DNA of 64,000 bases from a bacterium (GCA_043779265.1 JAYWEM010000104.1:8-64007), one strand, 5' to 3'. Shown: positions 5,093 to 36,400, numbered from the stretch's first letter. Notes: generated by a model not told the origin, from the letters alone. Translations and numbers: made by a program.

Positions 5093-5252
5093 CGGCTTCT
5101 CCGGGGGATCGAGGATTCGTGCTCGGCGGAGCCCATCGAGTGTAGCCCGCCGCTCCCGGCCGCTGCCACCCGTGAACTGCATGGTGCCTCGCGAGTTGCA
5201 CGGCCGCTGGGCCGTGCCAGCGGGCGCGGACTGCACTATCCTGTGTGCTCCC

Positions 5253-15758: not shown

Positions 15759-18227
15759 TCAGTTCTCGGGCACCAGACGCTTGCGCCACGGCGCCGCCAT
15801 GTCGCTCCGCCCGGTCCTCTCGTAGATCTCGATGAGCGCCTGCACCGCGCGCTGGATCCCCGGGTGCTTCTCGTCCTTGAAATTGACGAGCAGGATCCGA
15901 TACGCCTCGATGAACTCGGGTTCGGCCTCCTGGAAGCGGCCCAGTCCGAACAGCGCCTCGGCGTGCGACTGCAGCGTGATCCCGAGTCCGATGAACTGCA
16001 GCGGCATGACCTTGCGCGTCGTGGAGACGGCCCGTCGCAAAAGGGCCTCGGCCTCGGCTAACTTGCCTTGTCGGCTGTAGAGCCGCCCCAGATTGGTCAT
16101 CGACACGAGCACATCCGGGTGTTCCTCGCCCAGGCGTCGGCGACTCACCTCGTAGTCCTTGGCGTAGAGCGGCTCCGCAAGCGTCGGCCGATCGGTCTGC
16201 ATGTAAAGCACGGCCAGGTTGTTGATCGAGTTCATGGTCTCGACATGCTCGGGCCCGGACACCTTGCGACGCAGTTCCAGCACGCGCATGGAGATCGGCT
16301 CCGCCTGTTCGAACTTGCCGGCTTCGATGAGCGTCCACGCGTAGTTGGCCATTGCCGTCAGCGTGTACGGGTGCTCGGCGCCTTCGAGTGCGAGGTGCCC
16401 GTTGTACGCGATCGCGAGCAGGCTCTCGGCTTCTGCGAGCCGTTCAACATCCGTGTAGAGGATCCCCAGCGCATTCATGCTCTGCAGCAAATCGGCGTGC
16501 TTCGGACCCAGCGACCGCTTCTGCTGTTCGATCGTGCTCAGGAACAGGGGCTCAGCCTCGCTTGCTCGTCCGAGCGAGGTGTAGAGCGTGGCGAGCTGAG
16601 TCGTCATGCGGAGTGTCGCCGGCGCCGTGGGCCCCGCGGCCGAATCCAGCATCGCACGCGCGGCGAGCACCGGAGCCTCGGCCTTGTCGAACATACCCAG
16701 GCGCAGGTAAGTGTCCGAGATCGAGCCGAGCAACTGCGCATGGATGCGCGGACGGTCGCCGAACTGCTCGGTTGCGGCGGCAATCGACTGCTCGAGGACA
16801 TTCGCGTCGATCACCCGCAGCGCCGCGTCGGTCATGTTGACCTCGGCCAGCTGCGCATGGAAGGACGCAGCCGAGCGTGCGACATCGTTCTCGGAGGCTC
16901 CTGCCTCGCGCCGCGCACGGGCGAGTCGCGACCCGAGATCGGCGGTGAGCCGCCGACCCATCTTCTCGGCATCGATCGCTCCGAGCATGTTGGTCTGGAA
17001 CTCGACCAGGATCTGGGCGTCCTGCTTGGCCTGTTCGGCATCGCGCCGCTGCGCCGCCTCGCGCAGGCCGAATGTGGTGGTGGCGATGATGCCGGCCACC
17101 AGCGCCACCAAGGTCGCCGCGACGCCAGCCACCAGCGTGCGATTGCGCTTCGCGAACTTGCTCAGCTGGTAGACCGTGCTCGGCGCTCGCGCCAGAATCG
17201 GCCGCGAGTCCAGGTGGCGCTCGATGTCCTCGGCCAGCGCTGCAGCGCTGCTGTAGCGCCGATCGACGTCCTTCTCGAGCGCCTTGCCGATGATCGTCTC
17301 GAGGTCGGCATCGGGCGAGCCCGAGCCGCTCCAGCTCTGGCGCAGCGAGGCCGGCGGCTGCTCGCAGATGATCCGCACGGATTCGACGATGGGGATGTTC
17401 TTCAGCTCGTAGGGCCGCCGCCCTGTGAGCATCTCGTAGAGGATCACGCCCAGCGAGTAGACGTCGCTGCGCAGGTCGATCTGCGAAGAGTCGCCGCGCG
17501 CCTGCTCGGGGCTCATGAACGGCAGCGTCCCCATGATGACGCCGACCTCGGTGATCGCGGTCGCCACCTCGATGTCGGCGCCGGTGATCCGCGCGAGTCC
17601 GAAGTCGAGCACCTTGAGCTCGGGCAGGCCGCTCGACATGCTGGAGAACGTGGCGCTCGATCCCTCGGCCGCCGCGTCGTGGTCCGACACGATGATGTTG
17701 GAGGGTTTGAGGTCGCGGTGGATGACGCCGCGCTGGTGCGCGTAGTTGACCGCGGCGCACAGCGACAGGAACAGCCGCAGGCGGAATCGCACTTCATCGG
17801 CATCGAGCGAACCGGTGCGCTCATTCAGGAAGCGATCGAGCGAGCGCCCACGAACGAGTTCCATCGCGAAGAAATGCTCGCCGCCCTCGGTGCGACCGGC
17901 TTCGTAGATGGCGCCGATGTTCGGATGCTTGAGCAGCGCGAGCGTGTCGGCCTCTCGCTTGAACAACCGCACCTGCGCCTCGTCCACGAACGAGCCGCCG
18001 CGGATCACCTTGAGCGCGACGCGGCGGCGCGGATGGTCCTGCTCGGCCTCGTACACGATCCCCATGCCGCCGGCGCCCAGTCGACCGATGATTCGATAGC
18101 CGCCGATCGAGTCGGGGATGTGGCTGGCGCGGCCGCGGGCGGGCGTGCGGCCATCGACGGTCGGCGCATCCTCGGCTTCGGGCGACACGGGCTTGGGCGG
18201 GTGCGGCCCGGAGGTGGGGCGTTCCAT
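15759..18227 (-). CDS. Ser/Thr protein kinase with one TM helix and C-terminal TPR repeats.
   Basis: It has GAGGMGIVYEA, VALKVI, HRDLKPSNIIV and DFGLA Hanks motifs. A TM segment, LVAGVAATLVALVAGIIATTTF, follows. A long TPR region then runs to the C-terminus. Confidence 0.8.
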   Translation of the reverse strand: MERPTSGPHPPKPVSPEAEDAPTVDGRTPARGRASHIPDSIGGYRIIGRLGAGGMGIVYEAEQDHPRRRVALKVIRGGSFVDEAQVRLFKREADTLALLKHPNIGAIYEAGRTEGGEHFFAMELVRGRSLDRFLNERTGSLDADEVRFRLRLFLSLCAAVNYAHQRGVIHRDLKPSNIIVSDHDAAAEGSSATFSSMSSGLPELKVLDFGLARITGADIEVATAITEVGVIMGTLPFMSPEQARGDSSQIDLRSDVYSLGVILYEMLTGRRPYELKNIPIVESVRIICEQPPASLRQSWSGSGSPDADLETIIGKALEKDVDRRYSSAAALAEDIERHLDSRPILARAPSTVYQLSKFAKRNRTLVAGVAATLVALVAGIIATTTFGLREAAQRRDAEQAKQDAQILVEFQTNMLGAIDAEKMGRRLTADLGSRLARARREAGASENDVARSAASFHAQLAEVNMTDAALRVIDANVLEQSIAAATEQFGDRPRIHAQLLGSISDTYLRLGMFDKAEAPVLAARAMLDSAAGPTAPATLRMTTQLATLYTSLGRASEAEPLFLSTIEQQKRSLGPKHADLLQSMNALGILYTDVERLAEAESLLAIAYNGHLALEGAEHPYTLTAMANYAWTLIEAGKFEQAEPISMRVLELRRKVSGPEHVETMNSINNLAVLYMQTDRPTLAEPLYAKDYEVSRRRLGEEHPDVLVSMTNLGRLYSRQGKLAEAEALLRRAVSTTRKVMPLQFIGLGITLQSHAEALFGLGRFQEAEPEFIEAYRILLVNFKDEKHPGIQRAVQALIEIYERTGRSDMAAPWRKRLVPEN

Positions 18228-18416: not shown

Positions 18417-21400
18417 TCAGTCGAGTCGGACCATGCGCGTGGTGCTGCTCGGCAGCCCCGCACCCGAGACGCGCACCAGATAGAGCCCCGCCGCGGCGCG
18501 GCCGCCGGTGCTCGTGCGGCCCGACCAGACGAGGAAGTGTTCACCTGCCGCCAGTTCGCCATCCTGGAGTGTCGCCACCACGCGTCCCGCGATGTCGAGC
18601 ACGTCCACGCGTACGGCGGCGCGGCCGCCCAGTGCCAGCCGCACGGTCGAGTGTCCGCGGGCGGGATTCGGGGTGACGCCACGCAGCTCGAGCGTGCGGC
18701 CCGTCGGCAGTGCAGGCGGCGCGCTCGTGACCTCGATGGCCGAGATCACGGCGCTCAGTCGCACGCCTTCGACCGGGACGCCGGGGGGCAGTCCGTTCAG
18801 GAGCACGCGAGCGCTGCTGATGTGCAGCGCCGGCGGGCTCGAAGGCGGCGAGAACGTGACGCGATCGCACGGGAACGAGTTCCCCGAGATCGTGATCGTC
18901 GAGCCGCCCGCGATACCACGCGCGTCGATCTCCGGGAGTCCGTCGCCATCGAGATCGCCGCCCGCGAAGACCGCGGTCGGAGGCGAGCTCATCGTGACCA
19001 CATCGGCCAGCTGCTCGGTGACCAGGCCGCCGCTCACGTACACGCGCACGGTGGCCGGGCCGCCCCCGGCGAGGCCGGTCACGTAGCGCAGTTCGGTCGG
19101 GGCGCCGCCGTCGTCCTCCCAATCGAGCGCGTGCAGCATCTCGTCGGGTCCGCCGAGGCCAGAAGGCACCATGGCCGCCACACGCACGAGCGAGCGAGGA
19201 CTCCACACGACGCTGATCGAAGTCGGTAGGCGCTCGAACACGAAGCCATCGCAGTCGTCATCCGGCCCGCCGGATGCGACCAGCGCGCGCTCCAGCGCGG
19301 GTGCGCCGAGCATGCCCGTGGGCTCGAGACGCATCTCGTCACTCGAGGCGCCTGAGCTGAGGAGCACCGGCCCCTCGGCCTGCCCCCACGTGGCGCGCGT
19401 CAGGAATCCAGCGCGCGGTGTGGCGACATCCGCTCGCAGCGAGAGCGAGCCCGAGACCTGCAGCCCCGGGGGCGACAGCGTCATGTCGCACGCGCCGTAG
19501 CGCCCATCGACCGGACCATCGGGCGGACTGGCGGTCAGACGCGCCACCTGCGGCAGGGGGATGAGCGGGACGCTCGTCAGGCCGACGGGGTTGTACCACA
19601 CGTGCAATTCGGTGATGAGGTGCACGCCGTCATCGCACGTGATCTCCATCGGCGACGTGAGCGTGAAGCTCGTGCGTTCCGAGCGGCCGTTTCCGGTGTC
19701 GCGGATGCTCTTCACCTTGCCGCGCACCGCGGCGGCACCGGTGGAGGAAGGCGGGGTGGTGAGCTCCAGCCAGCTGTCCCCATCGAGGTCGGCCGAGGGG
19801 TAGGGCAGCATGGCGCCGTTGACCTCGACGTGAAGCGAGCGGAGGTTGATGTCCTGCATGCCCTTGCGGATCCTCTGCCCGTTCGTGGTCTCCTCGATCT
19901 CCACGTCGGCCCTGGGCGGGCAGCTGCCATCGGGGCACGGCAGCGTCACGAGTCGCATCGCGACCGGCGGGACATCGGACGGGTTCTCGTGCAGTTCGAA
20001 CGACACACTCGGCAGGCCCCGGTGCATGACCTCGACGCCATCCTGACCACTCGAGCCGAGGTTCTTGACGCTCAGGCGCCGGTCCGCGGCAGGGCTCCCG
20101 TCGTAGGCGCCATCGAGGCTCACGGTTTGGCGCGGCCCTCTCGCGAACGAGGCTCGGCCACCCTCGTCCGTGCTGCTCGCATGCAGCGAGCCGCCGCAGC
20201 CGCCGCTGCCGCCGCCCCCGCCACCGATGCGCCAGGTGCCGGGCGGCGTGCCGGGAGGATGCACGATGTGGACGTCCGAGATCTTGCGCTTGGCGCTGGG
20301 CGTGCCCACGCCGCCATGCGCGTGCAGCACCAGCTCATCGCCGATCAGCGAAGGCGAACCCGGAGCATCGAACACGGTGCCGGGCGCGAAGTGGAGCGAG
20401 TGCGCCACGAAGTCATCGGCGGTGCGCATCGCGTAGCCGGTCGGCCGCGTCGAGCCGTGCAGCAAGCTTCCGGGGCCCGAAGGACTCGGCGGACCGACTG
20501 CAACGCCTGCTGAGCGCACCTGCCACAGCAGCTCGTCGCTGGGGATCGTCGAAAGGCCCGTGACGTCGCAGGCGCCGCTCGTCGTGGCGGTCCACTCGGC
20601 CGCGACCACGTGCAGTGACGGCGGCAGTCCGGAGTAGTCGTCGTACTCGACTTGGGCCTCGAAACGCTGCGAGTGCCCCAGCACTCCCGGCGGCCGCGCG
20701 AAGAGTGAGAACTCGAGCGCGCGCAGCGCGCGATCCGCCGTGCCCGTCGGGGTCGGCGACAGCGCGATCACCAGCTCGCCGCCACTGCCGTCGGCCGCGT
20801 AGCTCATCGAGCAGGCCGAAGGATCGGCCACGTCCACGGCCCCCCCTCGGACGCTCGACTCGAGCGCGCGGACCTCGTGCGCGGGCAGCGCCGGAGGCGA
20901 GAGCGCCAGGCCGGACGAGACCGCCTCCTCGGTGATGACGACCTCTCCGGGAGGCGAGCCGAGCTCGGTCGCGAACGTGAGCCTCGCCTCGGCTGCGGGT
21001 TCGGGCGGCCCGGGGAGCTCGGCCGTGAAGACCAGCGAGCGCCCCGTCACCGTGACGCCATCCACCGTGAGGTCGCAGTCCTGGTCGACGTGGTGCGACA
21101 GACTGACTCGATGCGTCGAACTGCCGGCAGGTCCTGCCGACGTGGAGAAGCCGAGCGAGCTGAAGCTGTCGGACAGGCACGCGCCCTGCACCGTGACCTC
21201 CGTGTTCGACGCGAGCACGCGCGAGAACATGAGCTGCGTGCTGCTCCACACCTCGACCACGATACTGGTCGAGGCCGGGACATCGACGCTGTATACGCGG
21301 TCGGGCCCGCTGCGCAGCGCGCAGCCTTTGATGATCGGCGTGTTGTCGCCCGGCACGCGGTGCAGCGAGAGGTCGTTCGACCCCCCGACATTGATCTTCG

Positions 21401-21629
21401 TCCGGAGCCGGATCAACGAGCCCCTGTTGGGCAGGGTGATCGAGACCCCGTCCAGACCCTTCGAGCCGATGTTCGACACAAGCAGCGAGCCGTCGGTGCC
21501 GGTCGTGACCACGCTCGAACCCAGGGCCGTGTGGGTGTGGCCGTGGGCGACCGCCGCACTCGAGGGGGCCGGCAGCGCGGCCAGGATCAGGCCCGCGAGC
21601 GTGAGACGGGCGAGGGCGCGAAGCAGCAT
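18417..21629 (-). CDS. Large secreted hypothetical protein of about 1070 aa with a Gly-rich linker and a C-terminal FlgD-Ig/T9SS-like domain.
   Basis: It starts with the signal peptide MLLRALARLTLAGLILAALPAPSSA. It has a GGGGGSGGCGGS linker. The C-terminus is ...GLYLVRVSGAGLPSSTTRMVRLD. No catalytic motif was recognised. Confidence 0.6.
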   Translation of the reverse strand: MLLRALARLTLAGLILAALPAPSSAAVAHGHTHTALGSSVVTTGTDGSLLVSNIGSKGLDGVSITLPNRGSLIRLRTKINVGGSNDLSLHRVPGDNTPIIKGCALRSGPDRVYSVDVPASTSIVVEVWSSTQLMFSRVLASNTEVTVQGACLSDSFSSLGFSTSAGPAGSSTHRVSLSHHVDQDCDLTVDGVTVTGRSLVFTAELPGPPEPAAEARLTFATELGSPPGEVVITEEAVSSGLALSPPALPAHEVRALESSVRGGAVDVADPSACSMSYAADGSGGELVIALSPTPTGTADRALRALEFSLFARPPGVLGHSQRFEAQVEYDDYSGLPPSLHVVAAEWTATTSGACDVTGLSTIPSDELLWQVRSAGVAVGPPSPSGPGSLLHGSTRPTGYAMRTADDFVAHSLHFAPGTVFDAPGSPSLIGDELVLHAHGGVGTPSAKRKISDVHIVHPPGTPPGTWRIGGGGGGSGGCGGSLHASSTDEGGRASFARGPRQTVSLDGAYDGSPAADRRLSVKNLGSSGQDGVEVMHRGLPSVSFELHENPSDVPPVAMRLVTLPCPDGSCPPRADVEIEETTNGQRIRKGMQDINLRSLHVEVNGAMLPYPSADLDGDSWLELTTPPSSTGAAAVRGKVKSIRDTGNGRSERTSFTLTSPMEITCDDGVHLITELHVWYNPVGLTSVPLIPLPQVARLTASPPDGPVDGRYGACDMTLSPPGLQVSGSLSLRADVATPRAGFLTRATWGQAEGPVLLSSGASSDEMRLEPTGMLGAPALERALVASGGPDDDCDGFVFERLPTSISVVWSPRSLVRVAAMVPSGLGGPDEMLHALDWEDDGGAPTELRYVTGLAGGGPATVRVYVSGGLVTEQLADVVTMSSPPTAVFAGGDLDGDGLPEIDARGIAGGSTITISGNSFPCDRVTFSPPSSPPALHISSARVLLNGLPPGVPVEGVRLSAVISAIEVTSAPPALPTGRTLELRGVTPNPARGHSTVRLALGGRAAVRVDVLDIAGRVVATLQDGELAAGEHFLVWSGRTSTGGRAAAGLYLVRVSGAGLPSSTTRMVRLD

Positions 21630-21795
21630 GGCGGACTCCTTCAAGAGGTGTGCGGCGGGCGGCCCCCAGTCGGGCAGGCCGTCGCTGGTACTTCGCACGA
21701 GCCCCCCACATCTGACGCGAAATCGGACAGTGCCGCTCGATGGCCCATTTCCGGTCTGTCCCGGGCCCCGGCCGGGGGGCTACTATCGACCGGAC

Positions 21796-22518
21796 ATGCC
21801 CCCGTCCCCCGCAGAGGCACCCGGCTGGGCGAGCTCGTTGCGCGAGGCGGTTCCGGCCCTGAGCCAGGCCCGCGGCGCAGCGCGCGAACAGGCCCGCGTA
21901 TGGTTGTGGCGGCTTCTGCACGCCTCGATCTTCGCTTCGCTGCGGATGCAGGCCGGCCGCATCACCGCCGTGTCCCAGGAGGACATCGAGGACCTGGCCT
22001 CGGCCAAGTCGTTAGAACTGCTGGCGCGGGCCGAAGAGGGGACATGGAACCCGGTGCCGCACCCGCTCCACGAGGTGGCCGGGTTCATCCGGCGCGTCGC
22101 GCGGAACGGGCTGGTCGATCTGGCTCGCCGCAGGTCGCGCGAGTGTCCGGCGCTCGAGGACGAGGAGGGATGGGACAGGATGATCGCCGATCGGCTGCCT
22201 TCGGCTCCTTCGCCCGAGGACTGGGTGGGAGCGCGCGAGTTCGCGCATGCGCTCGAGGCCTGCGTGCGGCAGCTCTCGCCGCGAGCGCGGCAGGTGTGGT
22301 TCCTGCGAGCCTGTCTCGAGCGGCCGAGCCGCGAGATCGCCGTGCTCGCCGGCGTGAACCCGGCGCATGTCGATGTGATCGTGATGCGCGCGCGCACGGC
22401 GCTGGGTTCGTGCATGGCGACCAAGGGGCATCACGCGAGTGAAGTGAGGCCGGGGGCATTCGCCGTCCTATGGTCGGACTGGCAGGCGCAACAGCCGGGA
22501 GGAGGTCGCCAGACATGA
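21796..22518 (+). CDS. ECF-type RNA polymerase sigma-70 family factor.
   Basis: It has a sigma-70 region-2-like N-terminus and a region-4 HTH, IAVLAGVNPAHVDVIVMRARTAL. Its stop overlaps the anti-sigma ATG. Confidence 0.65.
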   Translation: MPPSPAEAPGWASSLREAVPALSQARGAAREQARVWLWRLLHASIFASLRMQAGRITAVSQEDIEDLASAKSLELLARAEEGTWNPVPHPLHEVAGFIRRVARNGLVDLARRRSRECPALEDEEGWDRMIADRLPSAPSPEDWVGAREFAHALEACVRQLSPRARQVWFLRACLERPSREIAVLAGVNPAHVDVIVMRARTALGSCMATKGHHASEVRPGAFAVLWSDWQAQQPGGGRQT

Positions 22519-23225
22519 GCGAGCCCGAACACCATCTCACCGATGCCAGCTGTGCCGATCTCGTCCTCGGCCTGACGCCGATCGCCGCAAGCGACGCGTT
22601 GCTCGCGCACGCCGAGCGTTGTCCCGAGTGCGAGACCAGACTGCGCGCGCATGCAGGCGCCTCGATTCGCGCGCGCGCCGAGAGCGGCGCGCTTGCCGAC
22701 GCCGCAGCGGGCGATGACGCGGTCAAGCGCGGCATGATGCCACTCGAGTTGCGCCCGCTGCGCTCACGCCCGCGCTGGCAGGACGGCGCGATCGTCGCGG
22801 CCGCCGCTGCCGTGCTGCTGGCGCTGGTGATCCCGCGCATGTCTCCGCCGACTCGCGCACTGGAGTCCTCCGAGTGGCTGCAGAGTCCGGGCGAGATGGT
22901 GCGCACCCGCGCCGATGGCGCGGTCGACCCAAGGCTCGCCGAGGGTTTCGAGGCCTACGCACGCCGCGACCTGCCGGGCGCCGTCCGCGCGCTGCGCGCC
23001 GCCAGTGCCGAGGGCGCCGCCGAACAGGCGCGCCGCCTCTATCTCGGGCACGCGCTGCTCGCGAGTGGCGAGTCGGTCGAGGCGCTCTCGTGGTTGGCGA
23101 GTCTCGACTTGGCGCGGCTGCCGGAGCCATGGCGCAGCGAGGCCGAGGCGGCATTGGCCGCCGCGTGGCGGGCCAACGGCCGCCGCGCGCCGATGGTTCC
23201 AGCGCAGGGGACCGCGCCACGATGA
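22515..23225 (+). CDS. Anti-sigma factor (zinc-finger, single-pass membrane).
   Basis: It has the N-terminal H...C...CPEC zinc-binding anti-sigma motif and a TM helix, AIVAAAAAVLLALVI. It has ATGA overlaps with both neighbouring genes. Confidence 0.6.
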   Translation: MSEPEHHLTDASCADLVLGLTPIAASDALLAHAERCPECETRLRAHAGASIRARAESGALADAAAGDDAVKRGMMPLELRPLRSRPRWQDGAIVAAAAAVLLALVIPRMSPPTRALESSEWLQSPGEMVRTRADGAVDPRLAEGFEAYARRDLPGAVRALRAASAEGAAEQARRLYLGHALLASGESVEALSWLASLDLARLPEPWRSEAEAALAAAWRANGRRAPMVPAQGTAPR

Positions 23226-25600
23226 TCCGAGGCGCACGCGGCCGGACCGCGGCCGCGGCGCTCGCGCTGCTGATCGGAGCCTGTGCTCCGGGTGAGCCAT
23301 CCATCGAGTCGCCCGGCGCACTGTGGAGCCGCACGCACGCGCGCCTCGATTCGCTCGGCTCGATCGATGCCCCGGAGCAGGCCGAGCGCGTGCTCGCAGC
23401 CGCACGTGTGCGCGCGGTGCTCGAGCCGCACGGCCGCGCGCCCTTGTGGTTGGCCGTGGACCTCGCGGCGACCGATGGCACGTGGCATCGCCGCGCGCAG
23501 TTGCCTGCCGCTCAGCGCGCGGCGCTCGCAGCGGCCGACCATGCCGGACTTCGCGCCGCCGCAGCGCTCGAGTGTGACTCGCTGGCCTCGGCCCATGAAC
23601 TGGCGAGGCGCTGTCTCGCCGTGCGGGAAGCTGCCTACGGGGCCGATGATGTCGAGTCGCTGCGAGCTGCGATGCGTTTGGCGCACATCGCGTTCCGAAT
23701 GGCCCGCGTGGCCGAGGCCGACTCGCTCGCGCGAGCCGTGTTCGAACGTCTCTCGCCGCGAGCGCGCGAGTCGCACCCGCTCGCGGCGGAGGCCGAACTC
23801 GTCCTCGGTCGAGTGCTCAAGAACTTCGCGGGACGCATCAAGTCCGAAGTGGCGATGACGCACTACGAACGCGCCCTGGCGATCCAACGGCAGGCGTTCG
23901 GAGAGTCCTCGCTCGAAGCGGCCTCGGTGCATCAGGACATGGGCAATCTCGATCGCATGATGAGGCGGCCCGAGGCTGCTCAGACTCAATTCCTGCGTGC
24001 GCTCGCGATCCGCAGAGCGAAGTTGGGCGAGCGTCACGACGAGGTCGCCTCGACTCTGACCGCGATCGCGTTCCTGCACTCATCGCGGGGCGACTGGCGC
24101 CGGGCCGAGCACTTCATCCGCCAGGCCTTCGAGGCGACGCCATCGATTGCGGACCTGCCGCCCGCGACCGCCACGCTCCGGCACGGTCTGCACGGCCAGG
24201 TGCTGCGTCGACTCGGGCGCGACCGCGAGGCCATCGTGTCGCTGCGGATCGCCGCCGCCGAGGCCGAGACCGCGTGGGCGAGGAGCGAGCGCGATGCGGG
24301 AAGCTCGGTGCAGTCGGGCCTCAGCATCCATCGCGAACTGGCGCTGGCTCTGGCGGCCGAGGGGCAGCCCGATGCCGCGTTCGCCGAGCTCGAACTGGGT
24401 CATGCGCGCACCTGGGCCGAAGTGGCGGGCGGCGATGATCCGTGGAACGGCCTGCTGGCACGGGTCCAGCGCGCCTGTCCCGAGGACGTCGCGCTCATCG
24501 CGTGGCCGCGCATGTTCGTCGCTCCACCCGGCGGCGACTATCCCAAGTGGGCCTGCGTCATTCGCTCGCAGGGCCCCGTGGTCTGGGTGAAGCTGCCGCG
24601 CGATCGCACGTGGGCCCGTCGCGACCTCCCGGCCCGTGATGCGCTGCTGATGGAGATGGATCGCGCCTCGCACTGGCCGTTGCGCCTGTCGGACACGCGC
24701 CTCGTGGATTCGCTCGGACGCGCATTGGCGCGCGAGTGGTTCGATCCCATCGAGCCGCACCTGACGGGGGCCAAGCGCCTCATCGTCTTCGGTCCCGCCC
24801 TCATGGGCTCGGCCCCTCTGGCGATCCTGCGCGACTCGAACGGACGTCGGCTCGACGAACGCTTCACGGTCCACTACACGCCATCGGCGCTCGCATTCGC
24901 CACGCTCGCCGAGCGCACGTCGGACCTCACATCGATCGTCCCGCACGCTGTACTGGTCGGTGCGCCGACGCTGGCGGCCGACTCCGTCGAGTGGGCGCCG
25001 CTGACCGGTGCCGCCGAGGAACTGGCTTCGCTCGGGCGGTTGTTCCCCGAGGCCACCGTACTCACCGGGCGGTTGGCGAGTGCCGCGAACCTGCGTGCCG
25101 TGCACGCTCGGCGCGCGCTCGAGCGAGGCGATGTGCTGCATCTGGCTGCGCACATCGAGATCGACGCCAGCCGCGTGATGCGCTCGTCGTTCGTTCTGGC
25201 GCCCGACCGACCGGGAGACGACATCAGCTCGCGACTCTCCGCCAGCGAGATCTCATCGACGTGGAAGGTCGGCGCGAGGATCGTGAGTCTGGCCGGGTGC
25301 CGCTCGATGTTGGGGCTCGACTCGGCGTCCGAGGGCTGGTTGGGGCTCCAGAGTGCATTCCTTGCGGCCGGCGCGAGATCCGTGCTGGTCACACTGTGGA
25401 GCGCCGACGACGATGCGACCGCCCGGCTGATGACCGAGTTCTATCGCAGGCTGCTCGATCGCGCGGTCCCGGTCGATGCCGCCGAAGCGCTGCGCGGCGC
25501 CCAGCAGAGCGTGCGTGCGTGGCATGCCGCCGATGGCACGATGCCCTACGCGCACCCCGTCTACTGGGCGGGATTCGCGCTGGTCGGCAGCGGGGAGTAG
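23222..25600 (+). CDS. CHAT-domain (caspase-like) protein with TPR repeats; predicted lipoprotein.
   Basis: The lipobox is LALLIGAC. It has TPR-like repeats. The C-terminal CHAT region holds the His/Cys dyad (LHLAAHIEID ... SLAGCRSM). Confidence 0.7.
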   Translation: MIRGARGRTAAAALALLIGACAPGEPSIESPGALWSRTHARLDSLGSIDAPEQAERVLAAARVRAVLEPHGRAPLWLAVDLAATDGTWHRRAQLPAAQRAALAAADHAGLRAAAALECDSLASAHELARRCLAVREAAYGADDVESLRAAMRLAHIAFRMARVAEADSLARAVFERLSPRARESHPLAAEAELVLGRVLKNFAGRIKSEVAMTHYERALAIQRQAFGESSLEAASVHQDMGNLDRMMRRPEAAQTQFLRALAIRRAKLGERHDEVASTLTAIAFLHSSRGDWRRAEHFIRQAFEATPSIADLPPATATLRHGLHGQVLRRLGRDREAIVSLRIAAAEAETAWARSERDAGSSVQSGLSIHRELALALAAEGQPDAAFAELELGHARTWAEVAGGDDPWNGLLARVQRACPEDVALIAWPRMFVAPPGGDYPKWACVIRSQGPVVWVKLPRDRTWARRDLPARDALLMEMDRASHWPLRLSDTRLVDSLGRALAREWFDPIEPHLTGAKRLIVFGPALMGSAPLAILRDSNGRRLDERFTVHYTPSALAFATLAERTSDLTSIVPHAVLVGAPTLAADSVEWAPLTGAAEELASLGRLFPEATVLTGRLASAANLRAVHARRALERGDVLHLAAHIEIDASRVMRSSFVLAPDRPGDDISSRLSASEISSTWKVGARIVSLAGCRSMLGLDSASEGWLGLQSAFLAAGARSVLVTLWSADDDATARLMTEFYRRLLDRAVPVDAAEALRGAQQSVRAWHAADGTMPYAHPVYWAGFALVGSGE

Positions 25601-25617: not shown

Positions 25618-26730
25618 TCAGTCGAAGGCCGCGAACTTGTTCGAGTCTCGTGTGAGCAGCTGCAGAAGCCTCTTGTTGAGGAACAGCACCTCACGGCCGT
25701 GCGCGTGCTTGCTCACCACGCCGATGCGCTCGAGCTCGTGCAGATGTTTCGACGCCGTCTGACGTGTGATTCCCGAGGCGGAGACGAGCTGGTCGATCCG
25801 CGTGTAGGCACCGCTGAACACCAAGTCGACGAGTTCTCGCGTGTAGATCTTCGGCAGTTGTCTGCGAACGTGCGCGACGGTGGCAAGCTCCAGTTCGCGC
25901 ATGGCCTCGACCTTGCCGGTGGTCCAGCGGGCCGTCTCCTCGATCCCGCGGAGCATGTAGAGCACCCATGGCTCCCACGTCCCGTGCCTCGTCACGTCGA
26001 GCAGCAGTCGGTAGTACTCGGCCCGGCTCCTGAGGATGTATCGGCTCAGATAGAGCACCGGAATCGGAAGCAGCTCCGCCTCGATCAACGCGAGGCTGAT
26101 CAAGATGCGGCCCGTTCGACCGTTGCCGTCGGTGAAGGGGTGGATGGCCTCGAACTGGTAGTGAGCGACAGCGATTCTCACGAGTTCATCCGGCGGTGGC
26201 GGCTCATGACTGAATCGCTCCCAGTCCGCCAGAAGCGCTCGGAGCTTCGACTCGCCTTGAGGCGGCGTGTAGATGACTTCCCCGGTGCTCGGGTTAGCGA
26301 GCTTCACTCCGGGCACCGTGCGAACAGCCATGACGGTTCCCTTGATTCGCGAGCACACCGCCTCGGCCGTGCGGGTGGTGAGCGGCCGCTGCTTCAACTG
26401 CTCGGCGCCCTCCATGAGCGCATGCCGGTATCGGAGCGCTTCCTTGATCTCGGGTGCCGCCTTGTCCTCGGTGCCAATGTGGCGGAACAGATCATCCACG
26501 GTAGTGATGATGTTCTCGACTTCGGAGCTGGCCTGGGCCTCGAGGAGCGGAAGGGTCGCGATCAGCAGCCCGGCTGCTTGGATGTGCGTACAGGCGCCTC
26601 GGAGCTCCGCCAGCGCCTCTTTCGCCCCGATGCACCCGCGGAGCACATCGGTGCTCTCGAAGTTGTTGCGGCCCATCAGGATGGGCAAGTTGTTGTGGGG
26701 GGCGTCGGCGAGCCACTCGGGTCTTGTCAT
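25618..26730 (-). CDS. Fic/DOC family protein (AMPylator family).
   Basis: It has the HPFTDGNGRTGR Fic motif and a C-terminal winged-HTH-like region. An AT-rich 135-bp region lies upstream. Confidence 0.8.
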   Translation of the reverse strand: MTRPEWLADAPHNNLPILMGRNNFESTDVLRGCIGAKEALAELRGACTHIQAAGLLIATLPLLEAQASSEVENIITTVDDLFRHIGTEDKAAPEIKEALRYRHALMEGAEQLKQRPLTTRTAEAVCSRIKGTVMAVRTVPGVKLANPSTGEVIYTPPQGESKLRALLADWERFSHEPPPPDELVRIAVAHYQFEAIHPFTDGNGRTGRILISLALIEAELLPIPVLYLSRYILRSRAEYYRLLLDVTRHGTWEPWVLYMLRGIEETARWTTGKVEAMRELELATVAHVRRQLPKIYTRELVDLVFSGAYTRIDQLVSASGITRQTASKHLHELERIGVVSKHAHGREVLFLNKRLLQLLTRDSNKFAAFD

Positions 26731-28323: not shown

Positions 28324-29871
28324 CTAGGGCGTTGGCGGCTTGTACATGTCGGTGAATGGCTGGCCCCAGTTCTCGCCATAGACCCGCCACACCAGCGCGA
28401 GTTGCTCGGCCGGCGAGCTCGCGACCAGTCCCTCCACGTAGGCGATGAACACATCGATCGTCTTGCGGCTGAACACGCGCGTCGGCCACGTGAGCTCCTT
28501 GCGCACGCGTTGGTCGTTGACGATGTCGCTCATCTCGTTGTCGACGTACATGGCGTCGCAGTACGGCAGGAAGTGCATGATGACCGAGAGGTCGTTCGTC
28601 GTCCCGCGCCCCAACTTCCTCTTGCGGCCGCCACGCGCGAACTGCCAACCGAGCGCAGCGCAGACGAGCGATTCGATGTGTACGAAGGGGACACCGGAGT
28701 GGTCTGCCTTCCTGAAGTAGTCGAGTGCGCGCCCCATTGCCGCTCGGAGTTCAAGTCCCTCCTCGTGAAGCGCATAGGCGATCGCGTTCAGGAGCTCCAT
28801 GCAGAGCGGCTCATCCGAGTCCCCGGGGTTGGGGACGACACGACCAGCCATGAGGTCGGGCAGTCGCTCCATTTGGGCGGCGAACTCTTTGAGAATGCCG
28901 CGAGGGAACGCGCGCACCATATCCTCCACGAAGTCATCGAACGAACCGCCGTGTTTGGCCCACTCGTGGCACGCCGTTGTCAGGTTGGTCTCGATCCTGT
29001 CCCGACGGGCACGGACCAGCGCGACGGTCTCAGGGTCCGGGGCGTAAGCCATGCCGATCATCAGGTTGTCGTGCCACCCGTGTACGTCGTCCTCGATGAC
29101 ATCCTGCACTACGAGTTCGGACGGCTTGTAGGGGGCACCGCGGTGCCAGTTGCGCGCGTGCTCCACGACCTGCGCCACCTTTATGTCCCACACCTCGGGG
29201 AAACTAACCTTGCGGGAGAGCTGCTCGTACATCCGTTCGAGGGCCCTAAAGTCTTTCGTGACCATCGACTCCTTTGCGTGGATGCGGGAGTCGGGGCAGA
29301 TCACGACCTGGAGTTTCACGGCGCGGTCTAGTACCTCAAATACGCGCCTCGCGTACCCTGCTCGCTCGGCGCGCGCGGGGTCTGCAGGGTGCAGGGCCTT
29401 CATCATGTCGCTGACCAAGTGCTGGTCGAGGTAGATGACCGCCTTCGTCGGCCGCGGGAGGCGGTAGGTCACGGTGTTCCAGCACTCGCGCCTCCGGCAC
29501 CGACGGGTGTAGTTGTCGCCGTGGATCATGAGCACCCCGAACTCGTCCTGCCCGCACTTCGGGCACGTCTCGAACGGTGGCTGGATGAAGTCAACGGGGT
29601 CGAACCGACGAAACGGCGCGCGGATGCCGGCACGGCATCGCTGGCAATGGAACGCCACTTCGATCTTGCCGGACCTCGGGCCGGGCGCCTCCCCGGTGAC
29701 GAGCGGGCCGGAGCACATCGGGCAGATCAGCGGCTTCTTGGCGAGGAATGCGCCGCTCACGCGCTTGACCTGCTCGGGTGTCCACGGGATGGCGCCTTGT
29801 TCCTGTGTTGAGCGATCCGCCTCGGTCGCGCCCTCGCCCGTGGCCCCGAATCCCTGATCGTGCTCTGTCAT
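28324..29871 (-). CDS. Hypothetical protein with two N-terminal zinc-ribbon motifs and a domain of about 400 aa of unknown function.
   Basis: It has CPMCSG...CQRC and CPKCG...CRRREC motifs. It has no recognisable catalytic motif. It is the first gene inside the island. Confidence 0.55.
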   Translation of the reverse strand: MTEHDQGFGATGEGATEADRSTQEQGAIPWTPEQVKRVSGAFLAKKPLICPMCSGPLVTGEAPGPRSGKIEVAFHCQRCRAGIRAPFRRFDPVDFIQPPFETCPKCGQDEFGVLMIHGDNYTRRCRRRECWNTVTYRLPRPTKAVIYLDQHLVSDMMKALHPADPARAERAGYARRVFEVLDRAVKLQVVICPDSRIHAKESMVTKDFRALERMYEQLSRKVSFPEVWDIKVAQVVEHARNWHRGAPYKPSELVVQDVIEDDVHGWHDNLMIGMAYAPDPETVALVRARRDRIETNLTTACHEWAKHGGSFDDFVEDMVRAFPRGILKEFAAQMERLPDLMAGRVVPNPGDSDEPLCMELLNAIAYALHEEGLELRAAMGRALDYFRKADHSGVPFVHIESLVCAALGWQFARGGRKRKLGRGTTNDLSVIMHFLPYCDAMYVDNEMSDIVNDQRVRKELTWPTRVFSRKTIDVFIAYVEGLVASSPAEQLALVWRVYGENWGQPFTDMYKPPTP

Positions 29872-30211
29872 CGCTTGATTCCTTCGGCGGTACCGCGGCC
29901 GCTCCCTGTTCCGGGCTGCCCAACACGTCTGCGCGTTCGGGCGGTCCGCTGCGCTGAACATCAATGTGCGCATCGCGCGTGGGTTCTTCTATGAACTTGA
30001 ACTGAGTTGCGTCCGTCCCGAGAGCTTCAGTGACCAAGAAGTTCAGTGCCTCGACCGCATCGTGATGTGAGAGAACCGAGGCGCTCACGGCATCGACAGC
30101 CCAGCTCGACCGAGCGAGGCTGGCATCACATTCGACCCGTGCCGGACTTGGCTCCAGGTGTGGCTGGGTGGCTACTGCGGCCGCGCCGCCCTCTGAGCGC
30201 GCCGAGCTACC

Positions 30212-33424: not shown

Positions 33425-36400
33425 TCAGCTCATCCCGTCAGACTTGGCGAGCTCGGCCACTGCCGGCTTCAGGAACGGCGGGTCTGCAGCGTCTGCGTCG
33501 AAGCCCAGACCTGCATAGGCAGGATTCCACGACTCGGCGAGCAGGGACTGCTCCACGCGCATCCGACCGCCGATAGACACGCTCCAGCCCGGCGCCAACA
33601 GCTTGTTCCCGCGGAGGTGCGCGACCATGCGTCGCGCGCACTCCGCGGCGTAGGCTTCGTCGGCCGCGCTGGCATGCGCCCGCAGGATCGTGAACAGCCC
33701 GTACTCGCCCGGTTCCGTGAGGTTCAGGCGCTCGGGCTCCTGCTTAGTCGCAGCGGCCGCGGCCGCGATCGCCTCGAGCTCGCGAAGTCGCAGAGCAATG
33801 GCCTCATCACCCGCGTCCCGGCGCTCCTTGAGTGCCTGCAGCCGCTCGCCCAGCTGGTGGTAGATGAAGCTCGGATCATCTTCGGACAACTCAACGGTGA
33901 GGAGCGCCTCCAGGGCAGCGGCCTTGTCCGCGGGCGTGGGGAGTTCGTCGAGCTTGCCCACGTAGTCCTTGTCGATCTTGAAGACCGGCAGGGCTTCGGC
34001 GATGTCGAGGAAGGCCGTGTTCTCCTGGATCAGTTGGCGGGTCTTCGCGGACAACTCGCCGTATGTGTCCTTGCTCCCTCGTTGCCGGCGGCGGTGAGCG
34101 ACGTAGATGCCGCACAGCCAGTTGTACTGGAAACGGTGAGGGTAGAGGCAGGGGTCGGGGGCCACGGCTTCCCAGAGCCGTTCCAGGCTGCGGAAGTTGT
34201 GCTCGAAACTCTTGGCGGCCTGTGCATCGCGCAGGCGGCGCAGCGCAGAGAGCAGGCACTCCCGCGTGTCCTCGATCTCGATGCCGTCGAACAGCGCCAT
34301 GCACCGTGCCACCTCGCCCGGCACCGTCGCTCGAAGCGCGTCCCAGTCGATCAGGGATTCCTCGCGCACGCTCTCGTCGAAGTTGAGCGCCTTCTCAAGG
34401 CTGGCAAAGACCCCGAAGTAGTCCACGACGAGGCCAGTCCGCTTGTTCATGGAGGGCAGGGGGCGGTTCGTCCGCGCGATCGCCTGGAGCAGGTTGTGGT
34501 CGCGGAGCGGCTTGTCCAGGTACAGGACCTGTTCGACGGGCGCGTCGAAACCGGTCAGCAGTCGGTCGCAGACGATCAGGATCTTGAGCGGCGGGCGCCA
34601 TCGGCTGCGGTCTTCGCCAAAGCGTTCTCGATTCCAGGTCTCCCACTCGGCCGGCGTGAGCTTGAAGTAGTCGATCAACTCGTCTTGCTTAGCCTTGGCG
34701 TACTCGAAGGCCTCAACCGCGGGTTCGCTGTTCTGTGCCCCGGAGATGATGACGTCGGACCACTCAGCGGGGAGGCCGCGCCCGCGAAGCTTGAGGTCGA
34801 GTGCCGTCTTGTAGAGAGCGCATGCCTTGCGGTCGACGGCGACCAGCTGCGCCTTGAAGCCGTTCGGATCTGGATGCGCTAGAAAGTGGTTCAGCATCCG
34901 CCCCAGCACGATTTCCACGCGCTCGGGGTGGCGGGCCAGTTCCTTCCACTGCGCGCGCTGACGCTGGACGAAGTCCTTGGCTTCCTCGTCCTCGAGTTCC
35001 ATCTCCTCGCACATCTGTTCGAACCCAGTGCTGAGGGCTGCCTCGTCGACCTTGAACGGTACGGCGTCGCGGATGTAGTGAACCTCGAGGGTGGCGCCAT
35101 CCCGGATCGCGCGCCGAATGCCGTAGTAGCTGAGATAGCGCTCCTGGACGCCGTCCCTCAGGGGGCCGAAGTCGCGGTGCGTGTTCTGCATCGTCCGGTC
35201 AATCGGAGTGCCGGTGAAGCCGAAGCGAAACGCGTTCGCGAGCTTGACGCGCATCGTCATCGCGTAGCTCTCAGTGCCGTCGCCCTTCTGGGAGCGGTGG
35301 CACTCGTCGACCATGCTGATGATGTTGTCGCGCGCCAGGGGGGCGAGGTCGCCCATTCCCTGGAACGACTGCACGGTTGTCACGAGAGTCCCTCGCCAAT
35401 CGGCGCGGAGCTTCCGCTTCAGGTCGTCGACTCCAAGCGCCTTCTCGACGTTCGGGTAGTCGCAGGCGTCGAAGTCGTCGGAGAGCTGGGTCTTGAGATC
35501 GCGCCGATCGACCACGATGAGGACCGTGGGGTTATCGAGGGCCGGGTGGCGGCGCAGCTTCTGGCCGGCGAAGATCATGGTGAGCGACTTGCCGGAGCCC
35601 TGCGTGTGCCAGATCAATCCGGTGCGCTCTTGGGAGTCGGCCGGCTTGCCGGCGAGGGTCACGGTGCGATCCACCAGCTCGTTCACCGCTTCGAACTGCT
35701 GGTAGCGCGCGATCTTCTTCGCCGTCTTGCCCTTCTTGGTTTCGAAGACGACGAAGTGCTGCAGGAAGTCCAGCAGGTGCGCCGGCTTCAATCGCAGCAA
35801 GCCGCGAACCGGTGCCTCCAGCGGGTCGTCCGGGTCGGCGGCCTCGGGTTCATTCCAGTAGCCATGGCGATCCGGGTACAGGCTCAGCCAGCGGCCCCAC
35901 GAGTCGAGGTGGCGCTCAATGTCGTCCTTGCTGGCGTCGTGGAAGAGCACGGTGCCGAAGCGGAACTCCTCCTCGTCGGCTGCGACGCAGAACACATTCG
36001 AGGCCAGGATGAGCGGAGCTTGGCGCTGGTAGCGGTGCAGCTGGTGCACAGCCTCGCGCCAGTCCTTGCGGCTCGTGTTGTAGCTCTTGTACTCGGCCAC
36101 AACGAGCGGGATGCCATTCACGAGGAGGACAGTGTCCTCGCGGCACTGCCTCACGCCCTGAACGCGGTACTGGTTCGTTGCGGTGAAGTCGTTCCGGCCC
36201 GGCTTGCTCGGGTCGAACTCGATGAAGAACACCGTCGTCGCGTCCGCGCCCGGCTCCAGTACGACCTTGGCGCCGTCCCGAAGCAGGTCAAGTGTCTGGC
36301 GGTTCGCCGTGAGCTTGTCAGGGTGGGACATCGTCGTGCGAAGCGCTGCGACGGCGAGCCTTGCCTGCACCTCGTCCTTCACCTGCGGATTGATGCGAAG

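Follow-up and report, generated by a model that had tools for sequence, protein, structure and literature searches.

What connects an exported caspase-like protease to the ECF sigma factor and the anti-sigma factor with which it shares an operon? This question is raised by a three-gene module of an uncultured Eisenbacteria-type bacterium, located in a 64,000-nucleotide stretch of DNA (GCA_043779265.1, JAYWEM010000104.1:8-64007) that is referred to as the window in the following. The original prediction for this module described three tightly coupled genes and proposed regulated proteolysis by the third protein as the route of sigma release or as the output of the system.

Gene organization

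The first gene (21796-22518, plus strand, ATG at 21796) encodes an ECF (group 4) sigma factor of 240 residues, the second (22515-23225, plus strand) a single-pass anti-sigma factor of 236 residues, and the third (23222-25600, plus strand, stop codon at 25598-25600) an exported TPR-CHAT lipoprotein of 792 residues. As predicted, the genes are linked by exact ATGA overlaps, in which the anti-sigma start overlaps the sigma stop (22515-22518) and the CHAT start overlaps the anti-sigma stop (23222-23225). The Shine-Dalgarno-like sequences GGGAGGAGG and AGGGGA lie 10-11 nt 5' of these two internal starts. In the assigned frames, the GC content of the three genes is 0.83-0.84 at codon position 3 versus 0.55-0.61 at position 2, which is the coding signature expected of a 70% GC genome, and identical gene calls and overlaps are found in relatives at 48-62% identity. 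The trio has no co-oriented neighbours, as it is bordered by a divergent gene on one side (18417-21629, minus strand) and by a convergent gene on the other (25618-26730, minus strand). The overlaps had also been taken to imply stoichiometric co-expression, but this over-reads them: in 12 distant loci the CHAT gene is divergent or convergent to the sigma/anti-sigma pair and is therefore on a separate transcript there.

The divergent intergenic control region (21630-21795) was analysed by aligning five orthologous intergenic regions, which share the conserved blocks CTTCGC, GGTTCTGAC, ATTCCG.CCT(A/G)TC and a TA(C/A)(C/T)AT box. The position of this candidate promoter box, which ends about 9 nt 5' of the sigma ATG, suggests that the sigma mRNA may be leaderless or near-leaderless. 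A scan of the same region revealed neither a sigma-70 consensus promoter nor an intrinsic terminator.

The three proteins

The assignment of the first protein as an ECF sigma factor is confirmed by matches above the respective cut-offs to TIGR02937 sigma70-ECF (51.5 bits, cut-off 42.9, residues 59-204) and to Sigma70_r4_2 (29.9 bits, cut-off 25.7). There is no separate match to Pfam Sigma70_r2 (PF04542, E <= 0.1); region 2 is divergent, yet it can be recognised by eye (EDLASAKSLELL ... VARNGLVDLARRR) and is kept across the family in a cross-phylum alignment. The protein is also extended by about 55 residues at its N-terminus and closes with some 30 conserved residues (C..KG..P.G.F..LW), and orthologues occupy the equivalent position in the related loci L003, L005, L007 and L008.

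The second protein begins with a cytoplasmic three-helix domain carrying the zinc motif, followed by a disordered linker, the transmembrane helix and a periplasmic part. The predicted zinc-binding (ZAS) motif H32-x3-C36-x2-C39 (22608-22631, plus strand; codons CAC at 22608, TGT at 22620 and TGC at 22629) is complemented by H7, and this spacing presumably corresponds to that of the ligands H6/H31/C35/C38 in ChrR of R. sphaeroides. H7, C13, H32, C36 and C39 are invariant in an alignment of 25 sequences (A3), and H7, H32, C36 and C39 show 95-98% conservation among 173 family representatives. The transmembrane helix comprises approximately residues 91-107 (22785-22835), the sole hydrophobic segment, in which hydropathy is highest at residue 91; the basic stretch RSRPRW lies before this helix. 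These features bear out the prediction of a zinc-motif single-pass anti-sigma factor. On the basis of this topology and the structural model, the C-terminal domain is placed outside the membrane, i.e. in the compartment of the CHAT protein; it consists of a juxtamembrane segment (W121-L122..R132) that is conserved family-wide among the 173 representatives, predicted TPR-like helices (residues 126-220) and a disordered tail. In the family, this disordered tail carries a conserved C-terminal A-D-S-[LI] motif, which the protein of the window does not possess. The AF2 model has a pLDDT of 81, with 94-96 for the three N-terminal helices. No Pfam or NCBIfam model matches the protein, Pfam zf-HC2 included, and a PDB profile search (E <= 10) matched no anti-sigma factor except a stretch of CnrY at chance level; ChrR (2q1z_D) is among the weak Foldseek matches. 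That the protein binds zinc and its cognate sigma factor is a prediction, for which the support comes from gene position: in all relatives its gene adjoins and overlaps that of the sigma factor.

The third protein consists of a signal peptide (residues 1-20), a lipobox cysteine at position 21 (23282-23284), a TPR superhelix (approximately residues 31-418) and a caspase-like CHAT domain (residues 498-790). The signal peptide ends with LIGA-C21 (MIRGARGRTAAAALALLIGA-C21), and the lipobox cysteine is kept in 9 of 9 full-length orthologues, while among distant CHAT relatives some carry a lipobox and others a type I signal peptide. The superhelix is all-helical with Pfam matches to TPR_12 and TPR_10, and the CHAT match (PF12770, E 1.1e-49, 169.9 bits) covers profile positions 3-289 of 289. 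The AF2 model has a pLDDT of 84.3 and a pTM of 0.82. The original prediction had noted that His and Cys are present, and alignments with checked codons (25151-25300, plus strand) assign the catalytic dyad to His644 (25151-25153, motif LHLAAH-I, hHhAxH) and Cys693 (25298-25300, motif SLAG-C-RS, LxxC). Both residues are invariant in alignment A1, and all 88 CHAT loci have His and Cys in those columns. This conservation argues for the view that catalysis matters and that the CHAT protein is more than bulk.

A split relative of DdvS and DdvA

To our knowledge, DdvA of Myxococcus xanthus, in which inhibitor and protease form one protein, is the sole anti-sigma factor to have been characterised that carries a TPR-CHAT domain within its own chain. 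When the full-length model of the CHAT protein was compared with the whole PDB by Foldseek, the periplasmic domain of DdvA was the top match (8rot_A; E 9.7e-14, TM 0.53 (TMq), 758 columns), ahead of Craspase Csx29 and separase, and 8rw5 was likewise among the top matches. In the model, H644 is located at a strand turn and C693 in a post-strand loop, as reported for H862 and C907 of DdvA. The CHAT protein is the structural equivalent of the DdvA periplasmic domain; its sequence identity to DdvA is only 17%, and HMMER gives no link between the two. A natural fusion, P0036, combines the matching H7/H32xxxC36xxC39 spacing with a subsequent transmembrane helix, TPR and CHAT. Its CHAT half aligns with the present family (hhalign probability 99%, E 3e-18) and a sigma-like gene precedes it; P0036 itself falls outside the anti-sigma family. 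Since DdvA is the top PDB match and P0036 is a fused relative, the locus represents a variant of a DdvS/DdvA-like pathway that is split between two polypeptides.

Both systems share an ECF gene that adjoins a single-pass anti-sigma gene, an N-terminal H-x3-C-x2-C zinc domain, a periplasmic TPR-CHAT unit with an intact His-Cys dyad, and the proposed logic of CHAT as site-1 protease followed by RseP. Unlike in DdvA, however, the anti-sigma factor and the TPR-CHAT unit are two polypeptides, the latter is equipped with a signal peptide and a lipid anchor of its own, and the periplasmic half of the anti-sigma factor retains a small TPR-like domain, for which Foldseek detected no counterpart anywhere in DdvA. 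The hosts differ as well, as the split module is found in Eisenbacteria and related phyla and in Acidobacteriota, while fused forms have been reported only in Myxococcota and one Comamonas species (PMC11506125). In M. xanthus, the TPR-CHAT domain of DdvA blocks RseP, and DdvA without this domain is an RseP substrate, the truncation alone being sufficient to destabilise the protein (PMC11506125). The active site of CHAT lies opposite a flexible juxtamembrane linker, and it has been hypothesised that the CHAT protease drives sigma release (PMC11506125). This site-1 role is still a hypothesis even in DdvA, because neither of the dyad mutants, H862A and C907A, differed from wild type in the conditions tested, and autoproteolysis was not observed (PMC11506125).

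Conservation of the trio across phyla

The flanks of 80 genome loci retrieved via the CHAT protein were searched with family-specific sigma and anti-sigma profiles. Of these loci, 21 show profile matches beside CHAT, among them 19 of the 28 most similar; 5 of the 9 unmatched loci among these 28 are truncated by a contig end that directly borders the CHAT gene. Together with the gene calls and overlaps that recur in relatives, this argues against a chance arrangement. In L020 and L032, two CHAT loci of the family whose flanks are complete, neither a sigma nor an anti-sigma gene lies close by, and no family-specific sigma/anti-sigma neighbour was found for 52 lower-scoring loci (L034, L035, and L037-L088 minus L044 and L076). 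Reverse sampling via the anti-sigma factor recovered a CHAT gene downstream in L092-L099 and L102, and the distant family member P0160 has a divergent gene for an 813-residue TPR-CHAT protein; at L089, also a distant member, a gene for a secreted Ig-like protein follows instead.

Close relatives retain the gene order of the window, and distant carriers are found in Eisenbacteria, Krumholzibacteriota, Gemmatimonadota, Fibrobacteraceae and Acidobacteriota, several of these lineages being little-studied phyla, with four gene orders in all: sigma/anti-sigma/CHAT (8 loci), CHAT/sigma/anti-sigma (1 locus), divergent (4 loci, plus L105) and convergent (8 loci). The trio is thus kept as a unit, and the linkage survives rearrangement of gene order. 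Of the two outcomes that the original prediction had named as refuting it, a catalytic Cys or His missing from the alignment and an operon that relatives do not share, neither was observed. The anti-sigma ZAS/TPR family comprises at least 1070 clusters at 50% identity, distributed over Eisenbacteria, Krumholzibacteriota, Gemmatimonadota, Fibrobacterota and Acidobacteriota, and its top 150 representatives have 144-462 residues each, none being CHAT-sized.

Proposed mechanism

The proposal that CHAT proteolysis drives sigma release fits the hypothesis published for DdvA and the rank of DdvA as top PDB match, while the cleavage itself is inferred here and unproven in DdvA. We favour, with a probability of roughly 0.45, a three-protein transmembrane switch of a split DdvS/DdvA type, in which the exported CHAT protein cleaves the anti-sigma factor and thereby releases the sigma factor. 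In the resting state, the zinc-motif domain would hold the sigma factor at the inner face of the membrane, with the TPR-like half of the anti-sigma factor residing in the periplasm, the compartment shared by the lipid-anchored TPR-CHAT protein. The long TPR superhelix of the latter would capture a periplasmic protein or peptide signal, which would switch on the resting His644/Cys693 dyad. As site-1 protease, CHAT would then sever the periplasmic part of the anti-sigma factor, with the segment between the transmembrane helix and the TPR-like domain (approximately residues 108-132) as the most plausible site of the cut, and an RseP-type site-2 protease together with cytoplasmic proteases would clear the rest. 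The freed sigma factor would transcribe its regulon, probably including the divergent gene for a 1070-residue secreted protein. The further suggestion that this is an envelope-stress or cell-fate circuit found no specific support.

Several observations weigh against this switch. The zinc motif could permit a redox route to sigma release that is independent of CHAT, CHAT stands without the sigma/anti-sigma pair at L020 and L032, the anti-sigma gene of L089 is not followed by a CHAT gene, the DdvA dyad mutants resembled wild type (PMC11506125), the periplasmic domain of the anti-sigma factor has no DdvA match, and the protein of the window does not have the A-D-S-[LI] tail of its family. The broader proposal, in which a free periplasmic TPR-CHAT protein acts in trans as a dedicated site-1 protease in a widespread, previously undescribed two-protein switch of the large ZAS/TPR family, is put forward tentatively. 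If it is true, enzyme and substrate are two distinct proteins, so that the unproven site-1 role of CHAT that was left open for DdvA would become directly testable in vitro.

The proposed switch resembles the RseA/DegS/RseP/RseB system of E. coli in its single-pass anti-sigma factor with a periplasmic sensor part, a separate periplasmic protease proposed for site 1, and accessory periplasmic proteins that share the operon. It differs in its candidate for the site-1 enzyme, a caspase-like cysteine protease of clan CD with a TPR sensor instead of a PDZ-serine protease, in that this enzyme is encoded within the operon itself, and in its anti-sigma factor, which belongs to the ChrR/RsrA zinc type and not to that of RseA. 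With ChrR and RsrA, this anti-sigma factor shares an N-terminal domain that is predicted as a three-helix bundle, but it is membrane-anchored, and a periplasmic TPR-like domain replaces the cupin. A TPR-CHAT protease is also tied to sigma factors in the type III-E Craspase (Cas7-11/gRAMP), where Csx29 cleaves Csx30 and thereby releases an ECF-like sigma factor; release through cleavage of an inhibitor would be the common principle, and Csx29 ranks second in the structural comparison of the CHAT protein. Craspase, however, is cytoplasmic, RNA-guided and bound to Cas7-11, and Csx30 and Csx31 are unlike the membrane ZAS protein found here. The CHAT protein is not a Csx29, as it carries an export signal and scores 11.7 bits on the Csx29 model NF041237, far below the cut-off of 300.

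Alternatives to proteolytic release

The CHAT lipoprotein could instead be the output of the system. The sigma/anti-sigma pair would then sense something else, for example oxidants via the zinc motif as in RsrA and ChrR, and the sigma factor would induce the CHAT protease, which would process secreted or surface proteins such as the 1070-residue neighbour. Neighbouring genes are common targets of ECF sigma factors, CHAT is transcribed separately in the 12 relatives mentioned above, and both the 95-98% conservation of the zinc motif and the divergent gene for a large secreted protein that close relatives share agree with such an arrangement. We nevertheless think that it is unlikely: the neighbour is restricted to the close family whereas the trio is found across phyla, the conserved periplasmic TPR-like domain of the anti-sigma factor would be superfluous if redox sensing took place in the cytoplasm only, and the CHAT protein structurally equals a sensor domain that is built into the anti-sigma factor in DdvA and P0036.

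Somewhat more doubtful is a role of CHAT as a non-cleaving partner, which would dock on the periplasmic TPR-like domain or tail of the anti-sigma factor and shield it from the site-2 protease in an RseB- or DdvA-like manner, with release by ligand binding or self-cleavage of CHAT while the anti-sigma factor stays uncut. This would agree with the block of RseP by the DdvA TPR-CHAT domain, the destabilising effect of truncation and the dyad mutants without phenotype (PMC11506125), and the disordered A-D-S-[LI] tail of the family could be a TPR-docking peptide; but the dyad kept in 88 of 88 loci argues for catalysis, and the anti-sigma factor of the window has no tail motif, yet its operon is intact on several contigs.

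That the module is a phage-sensing switch over nearby anti-phage defence genes is very improbable: DdvS/DdvA does control a CBASS-CRISPR island (PMC11506125), and a SoFic gene (PADLOC 4.5e-107) lies directly 3' of the CHAT gene of the window, with a type I restriction-modification system at 33425-39922, but no CBASS or CRISPR regulon is conserved near the module, none of the window's defence genes is kept beside it in L003, L005, L006, L007 and L008, the relatives' neighbours being non-defence genes, SoFic looks inserted, and none of the three proteins matches a PADLOC model.

Neighbouring genes

The divergent gene at 18417-21629 (minus strand) encodes the secreted protein of 1070 residues, which has a C-terminal FlgD_ig-type sorting domain (Pfam FlgD_ig, 2.8e-10). 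Full-length orthologues occupy the same divergent position in L001, L003, L005, L008 and L093, and the protein is a candidate regulon member of the sigma factor. A membrane Ser/Thr kinase with C-terminal TPR_12/TPR_10 repeats (15759-18227, minus strand; Pfam Pkinase 9e-42, TPR_12 9e-45) is only loosely linked to the module: no kinase is present at the locus in L005 and L008, a different one follows the CHAT gene in L007, and a 62%-identical orthologue in L003 is located on the opposite side of the module. In comparison with L006, the SoFic gene resembles an insertion between the CHAT gene and an HI0933-like gene.

Gene structure and control region

The three genes of the module lie in a row on the forward strand, flanked by a divergent gene at 18417-21629 (-) and a convergent gene at 25618-26730 (-). 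The ECF sigma factor gene (ATG 21796, TGA 22516-22518, +, 240 codons) overlaps with its TGA the ATG of the anti-sigma factor gene (ATG 22515, TGA 23223-23225, +, 236 codons), and the TGA of the latter overlaps in turn the start of the TPR-CHAT gene (ATG 23222, stop 25598-25600, +, 792 codons). The window has a GC content of about 70%, so that long spurious open reading frames abound in all frames. That the three overlapping genes are nevertheless real, as the original prediction had assumed, is confirmed by the frames and overlaps themselves, by the codon-position bias (GC of 0.83-0.84 at third versus 0.55-0.61 at second positions in the three module frames), and by independent gene calls, which yield the same three genes for the identical proteins on public contigs. 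Shine-Dalgarno-like sequences, GGGAGGAGG and AGGGGA, are found 10-11 nt 5' of the two internal starts.

An ECF-type promoter (GGAAC-N16-17-CGT) was sought in the conserved divergent intergenic region, and none was convincing. In five orthologous intergenic regions (21630-21800 in the window), a TA(C/A)(C/T)AT box ends about 9 nt before the sigma ATG, and a Shine-Dalgarno sequence is absent 5' of this start. This suggests that the sigma factor mRNA is leaderless or near-leaderless, and judged by its sequence the box looks more like the -10 element of a leaderless transcript than like an ECF-type promoter. Further conserved blocks in the five regions are GGTTCTGAC and ATTCCG.CCTATC.

The sigma factor and the anti-sigma factor

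The sigma factor scores 51.5 bits with TIGR02937 (cut-off 42.9) and matches Sigma70_r4_2 above the cut-off of that model. The Pfam region-2 model gives no match on this protein; in the family alignment, region 2 is divergent yet recognisable. The sigma genes of the window and of the related loci L011-L036 keep three features across phyla. The N-terminus is extended by about 55 residues, region 2 carries an insert (G.W.P), and the protein ends in a tail of about 30 residues, C..KG..P.G.F..LW, with a conserved cysteine. Together these sequence features may define a distinct ECF group.

For the second protein, neither Pfam nor NCBIfam has a matching family, and a sequence search found no solved anti-sigma factor. 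H7, C13, H32, C36 and C39 are invariant in 25 relatives. In 173 representatives of the family the conservation of H7/H32/C36/C39 is 95-98%, and their spacing matches that of the zinc ligands of ChrR (H6/H31/C35/C38). In the AlphaFold model (pLDDT 81), three helices predicted with confidence make up the N-terminal part, and a disordered linker connects them to a membrane helix at about 91-109, in agreement with a hydropathy peak at residue 91. Beyond the membrane helix, a juxtamembrane stretch leads into a TPR-like bundle (126-220), and the chain ends in a disordered tail. Judged by the basic RSRPRW before the membrane helix, the N-terminus is cytoplasmic and the C-terminal domain lies on the outer side of the membrane. 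As far as sequence and model can tell, these features are those of a zinc-type single-pass anti-sigma factor. Within the juxtamembrane stretch, W121-L122...R132 is conserved family-wide. In fold comparison the model found no significant match overall and only weak ones to small TPR proteins and ChrR, and we therefore do not equate the periplasmic domain with a part of the DdvA scaffold.

A library of 1.84 billion representatives contains 1070 clusters of the family (E <= 1e-3), and the best 150 of these are without exception small, stand-alone proteins. One 462-residue member (P0072) is matched over residues 250-462; it may join sigma and anti-sigma factor in one chain or stem from gene calls that were merged. 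The disordered C-terminal tail of the family reads A-D-S-[LI] (92/79/82% conserved) and might serve for docking to TPRs or as a degron. The anti-sigma factor of the window is without this tail and reads RRAPMVPAQGTAPR instead (23181-23225, +). At this place GCC GAT GGT TCC (A D G S) lies in the frame of the CHAT gene, and compared with relatives its GCCGAT (A-D) codons are shifted by 4 nt. A frameshift origin was examined, and compensating indels are a possible source of the odd tail.

The CHAT lipoprotein and its relation to DdvA

The third protein combines TPR_12/TPR_10 repeats with a full-length CHAT domain (residues 498-790, E 1e-49). Its N-terminus, MIRGARGRTAAAALALLIGA-C21, is a lipoprotein signal, the cysteine of which is kept in 9/9 full-length orthologues. 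Every orthologue in the alignment has H644 (LHLAAH) and C693 (SLAGC), and all of the 88 CHAT-bearing loci that were aligned to the family profile carry His and Cys in the dyad columns. The proposed catalytic dyad thus withstood alignment, and the original prediction of an ECF sigma factor, a zinc-type single-pass anti-sigma factor and a TPR-CHAT lipoprotein with His and Cys is borne out protein by protein: by the TIGR02937 and Sigma70_r4_2 scores for the first, by the conserved H/C motif, the single membrane helix and the topology for the second, and by domain matches, lipoprotein signal and dyad residues for the third.

A HMMER search of PDB sequences with the CHAT protein and with a 12-sequence profile returned only TPRs of the kinesin-light-chain type and no CHAT structure. 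The AlphaFold model (pLDDT 84, pTM 0.82) has as its best match in the whole PDB DdvA of Myxococcus xanthus (8rot_A, E 9.7e-14, TM 0.53, 758 aligned columns, 17% identity), a link made by fold comparison only, with none shown by HMMER. The next fold matches are the Craspase protein Csx29 and separase.

DdvS/DdvA is the one directly relevant system found in the literature searched, although supplementary descriptions of ECF groups may mention CHAT neighbours, and DdvA is the sole studied anti-sigma factor with a caspase-like sensor domain. The system consists of an ECF sigma factor and an anti-sigma factor of about 1000 residues, with a cytoplasmic N-terminal zinc domain and a large periplasmic TPR-CHAT protease-like part (PMC6061681; PMC11506125). 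It has been proposed that a signal activates the CHAT dyad, which cuts the juxtamembrane linker in trans within a dimer, and that RseP then completes the release (PMC11506125). An RseP-dependent instability of truncated DdvA was demonstrated; CHAT-dependent cleavage was not detected and dyad mutants behaved as wild type, and as the trigger is unknown, no cut by the CHAT domain could be demonstrated (PMC11506125).

In DdvA the anti-sigma factor and the TPR-CHAT part form one polypeptide, whereas they are two separate proteins here. According to the model, the CHAT protein is the structural equivalent of a domain that in DdvA belongs to the anti-sigma factor itself. We therefore regard the locus as a variant of the DdvS/DdvA type of anti-sigma system with a caspase-like sensor, split into two proteins. 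Fused DdvA-like proteins have been reported solely from Myxococcota and one Comamonas species (PMC11506125). One of the more weakly matching sequence relatives of the CHAT protein, a soil-metagenome protein of 1077 residues (P0036, L103 589-3822), has such a DdvA-like fused architecture, with H7, H32-x3-C36-x2-C39, a membrane helix, TPRs and CHAT, and is preceded by a sigma-like gene. Its CHAT half matches the CHAT family of the window with an hhalign probability of 99% (E 3e-18), and between its N-terminus and the zinc motif of the window's anti-sigma factor there is a weak alignment, residue for residue. That the same parts occur both fused and split is classically taken as evidence that they share a pathway and are physically close.

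Conservation of the module

CHAT orthologues with 48-62% identity occur in the order sigma, anti-sigma, CHAT in L003, L005, L007, L008 and a JGI contig, where the 4-nt overlaps are mostly retained. A scan of one genome per species assigned the lineage to Candidatus Eisenbacteria, through L010 (57% identity), L014, L015 and L026, and yielded more distant relatives as well. When profiles of the two regulator families were run against all open frames of 80 loci, the sigma/anti-sigma pair was found beside the CHAT gene in 21, in four gene orders: sigma, anti-sigma, CHAT (L010-12, L014, L015, L017, L019, L023), CHAT, sigma, anti-sigma (L021), divergent (L022, L025, L027, L031) and convergent (L026, L028-30, L033, L036, L044, L076). 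The titled genomes belong to Eisenbacteria, Krumholzibacteriota, Gemmatimonadota, Fibrobacteraceae, Polarisedimenticolia and other Acidobacteriota. The pair accompanies 19 of the 28 loci closest in CHAT sequence. In five others the contig end adjoins the CHAT gene, L034 and L035 are generic CHAT genes, and L020 and L032 have full flanks and no pair. The pair is absent from all of the remaining 50 generic CHAT loci, which come from Myxococcota, Pyrinomonadaceae and others. The expectation that the operon is conserved as a unit holds in close relatives, and beyond these it is the linkage that is kept.

The reverse search gave a similar picture. A metagenome scan with the anti-sigma profile, which reached close relatives only (11 loci), found a CHAT gene downstream wherever the contig permits (L092-L099, L102). 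Four distant members of the anti-sigma family were looked up, two of them on contigs too short to inform. P0160 adjoins a divergent TPR-CHAT gene of 813 residues; P0120 (L089) is followed on its 2-kb contig by a secreted Ig-like protein, so that the association may not be universal.

The split system is part of a sizeable uncurated family in several under-studied phyla. Neither Pfam nor NCBIfam has a specific model for any of the three protein families, namely the sigma factors that bear the conserved tail, the anti-sigma factors and the CHAT subfamily. As the partnership recurs as two separate proteins in these poorly known phyla with the dyad always kept, caspase-like proteolysis would reach wider in bacterial transmembrane signalling than reported.

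Proposed mechanism

On the level of sequences and models, we could demonstrate how the parts are arranged relative to the membrane, that they are exported to one compartment, that the dyad is conserved, that the linkage survives rearrangement across phyla, and that the CHAT protein is the equivalent of a DdvA domain. We think that the most likely mechanism, to which we give a probability of roughly 0.45, is the following. The TPR superhelix of the lipoprotein would sense a periplasmic protein or peptide, and the activated dyad would cut the anti-sigma factor in the stretch from the membrane helix to the TPR-like domain, a region into which the conserved W121-L122...R132 falls. The sigma factor would finally be freed by a site-2 protease and cytoplasmic proteases. 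Some form of upstream action of the CHAT protein on the anti-sigma factor is likelier than this full cleavage mechanism, and we consider it somewhat better than an even bet. The earlier interpretation, which tied the CHAT protease to sigma release, was in this respect largely on target.

The main alternative is that the CHAT protein is an output protease of the sigma regulon, a reading supported by its separate transcription in many relatives and by the conservation of the divergent neighbour, a secreted protein of 1070 residues. After this comes a role of the CHAT protein as a non-cleaving shield or partner of the anti-sigma factor. A regulation of defence genes by the module is unlikely, and the defence-island reading was rejected, as the adjacent SoFic gene and type I restriction-modification system are not kept beside the module in relatives and its three proteins match no PADLOC model. 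For the cleavage mechanism, the split system is experimentally simpler, since protease and candidate substrate can be purified apart and then mixed.

Neighbouring genes

The gene directly 3' of the CHAT gene (25618-26730, -) encodes a Fic protein of 370 residues with Fic_N, Fic and SoFic-like_C domains (PADLOC SoFic, E 4.5e-107), and it is absent from relatives. Next after it in the window comes an HI0933-like flavoprotein gene. In L006 two other genes, and no SoFic, separate the CHAT gene from an HI0933-like gene, so that SoFic looks like an insertion. A complete type I restriction-modification system (33425-39922, -; HsdR 1049, HsdS 441, HsdM 678 residues) is located about 8 kb downstream of the module. 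Between them, an ORF of 549 codons (28324-29973, -; 515 residues on the public contig) has several CxxC pairs and no Pfam match, and just past its counterpart on that contig lies a DUF3368 gene (L001 11991-12379). Together with SoFic and the restriction-modification system, this gene hints at a small defence or mobile patch.

A membrane Ser/Thr kinase with C-terminal TPR_12/TPR_10 repeats (15759-18227, -) adjoins the module. Its orthologue in L003 (8360-10846, -; 62% identity) is on the opposite side, where it converges on the CHAT gene and comes within 2 nt of the CHAT stop. In L007 the CHAT gene is followed by a different kinase gene, and L005 and L008 have none. This proximity may point to a loose functional connection or be no more than local synteny. 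Five large secreted proteins in the window end in a FlgD_ig-type domain (2600-5314, -; 9909-13148, +; 18417-21629, -; 58525-61320, -; 60750-63923, -), among which are an M14 carboxypeptidase and an S8 subtilase with FG-GAP repeats. The divergent neighbour at 18417-21629 was considered as a paralogue of the 1079-residue protein at 9909-13148 and rejected, as only the C-terminal sorting domain matches. This domain is presumably a secretion or sorting tag of the lineage.
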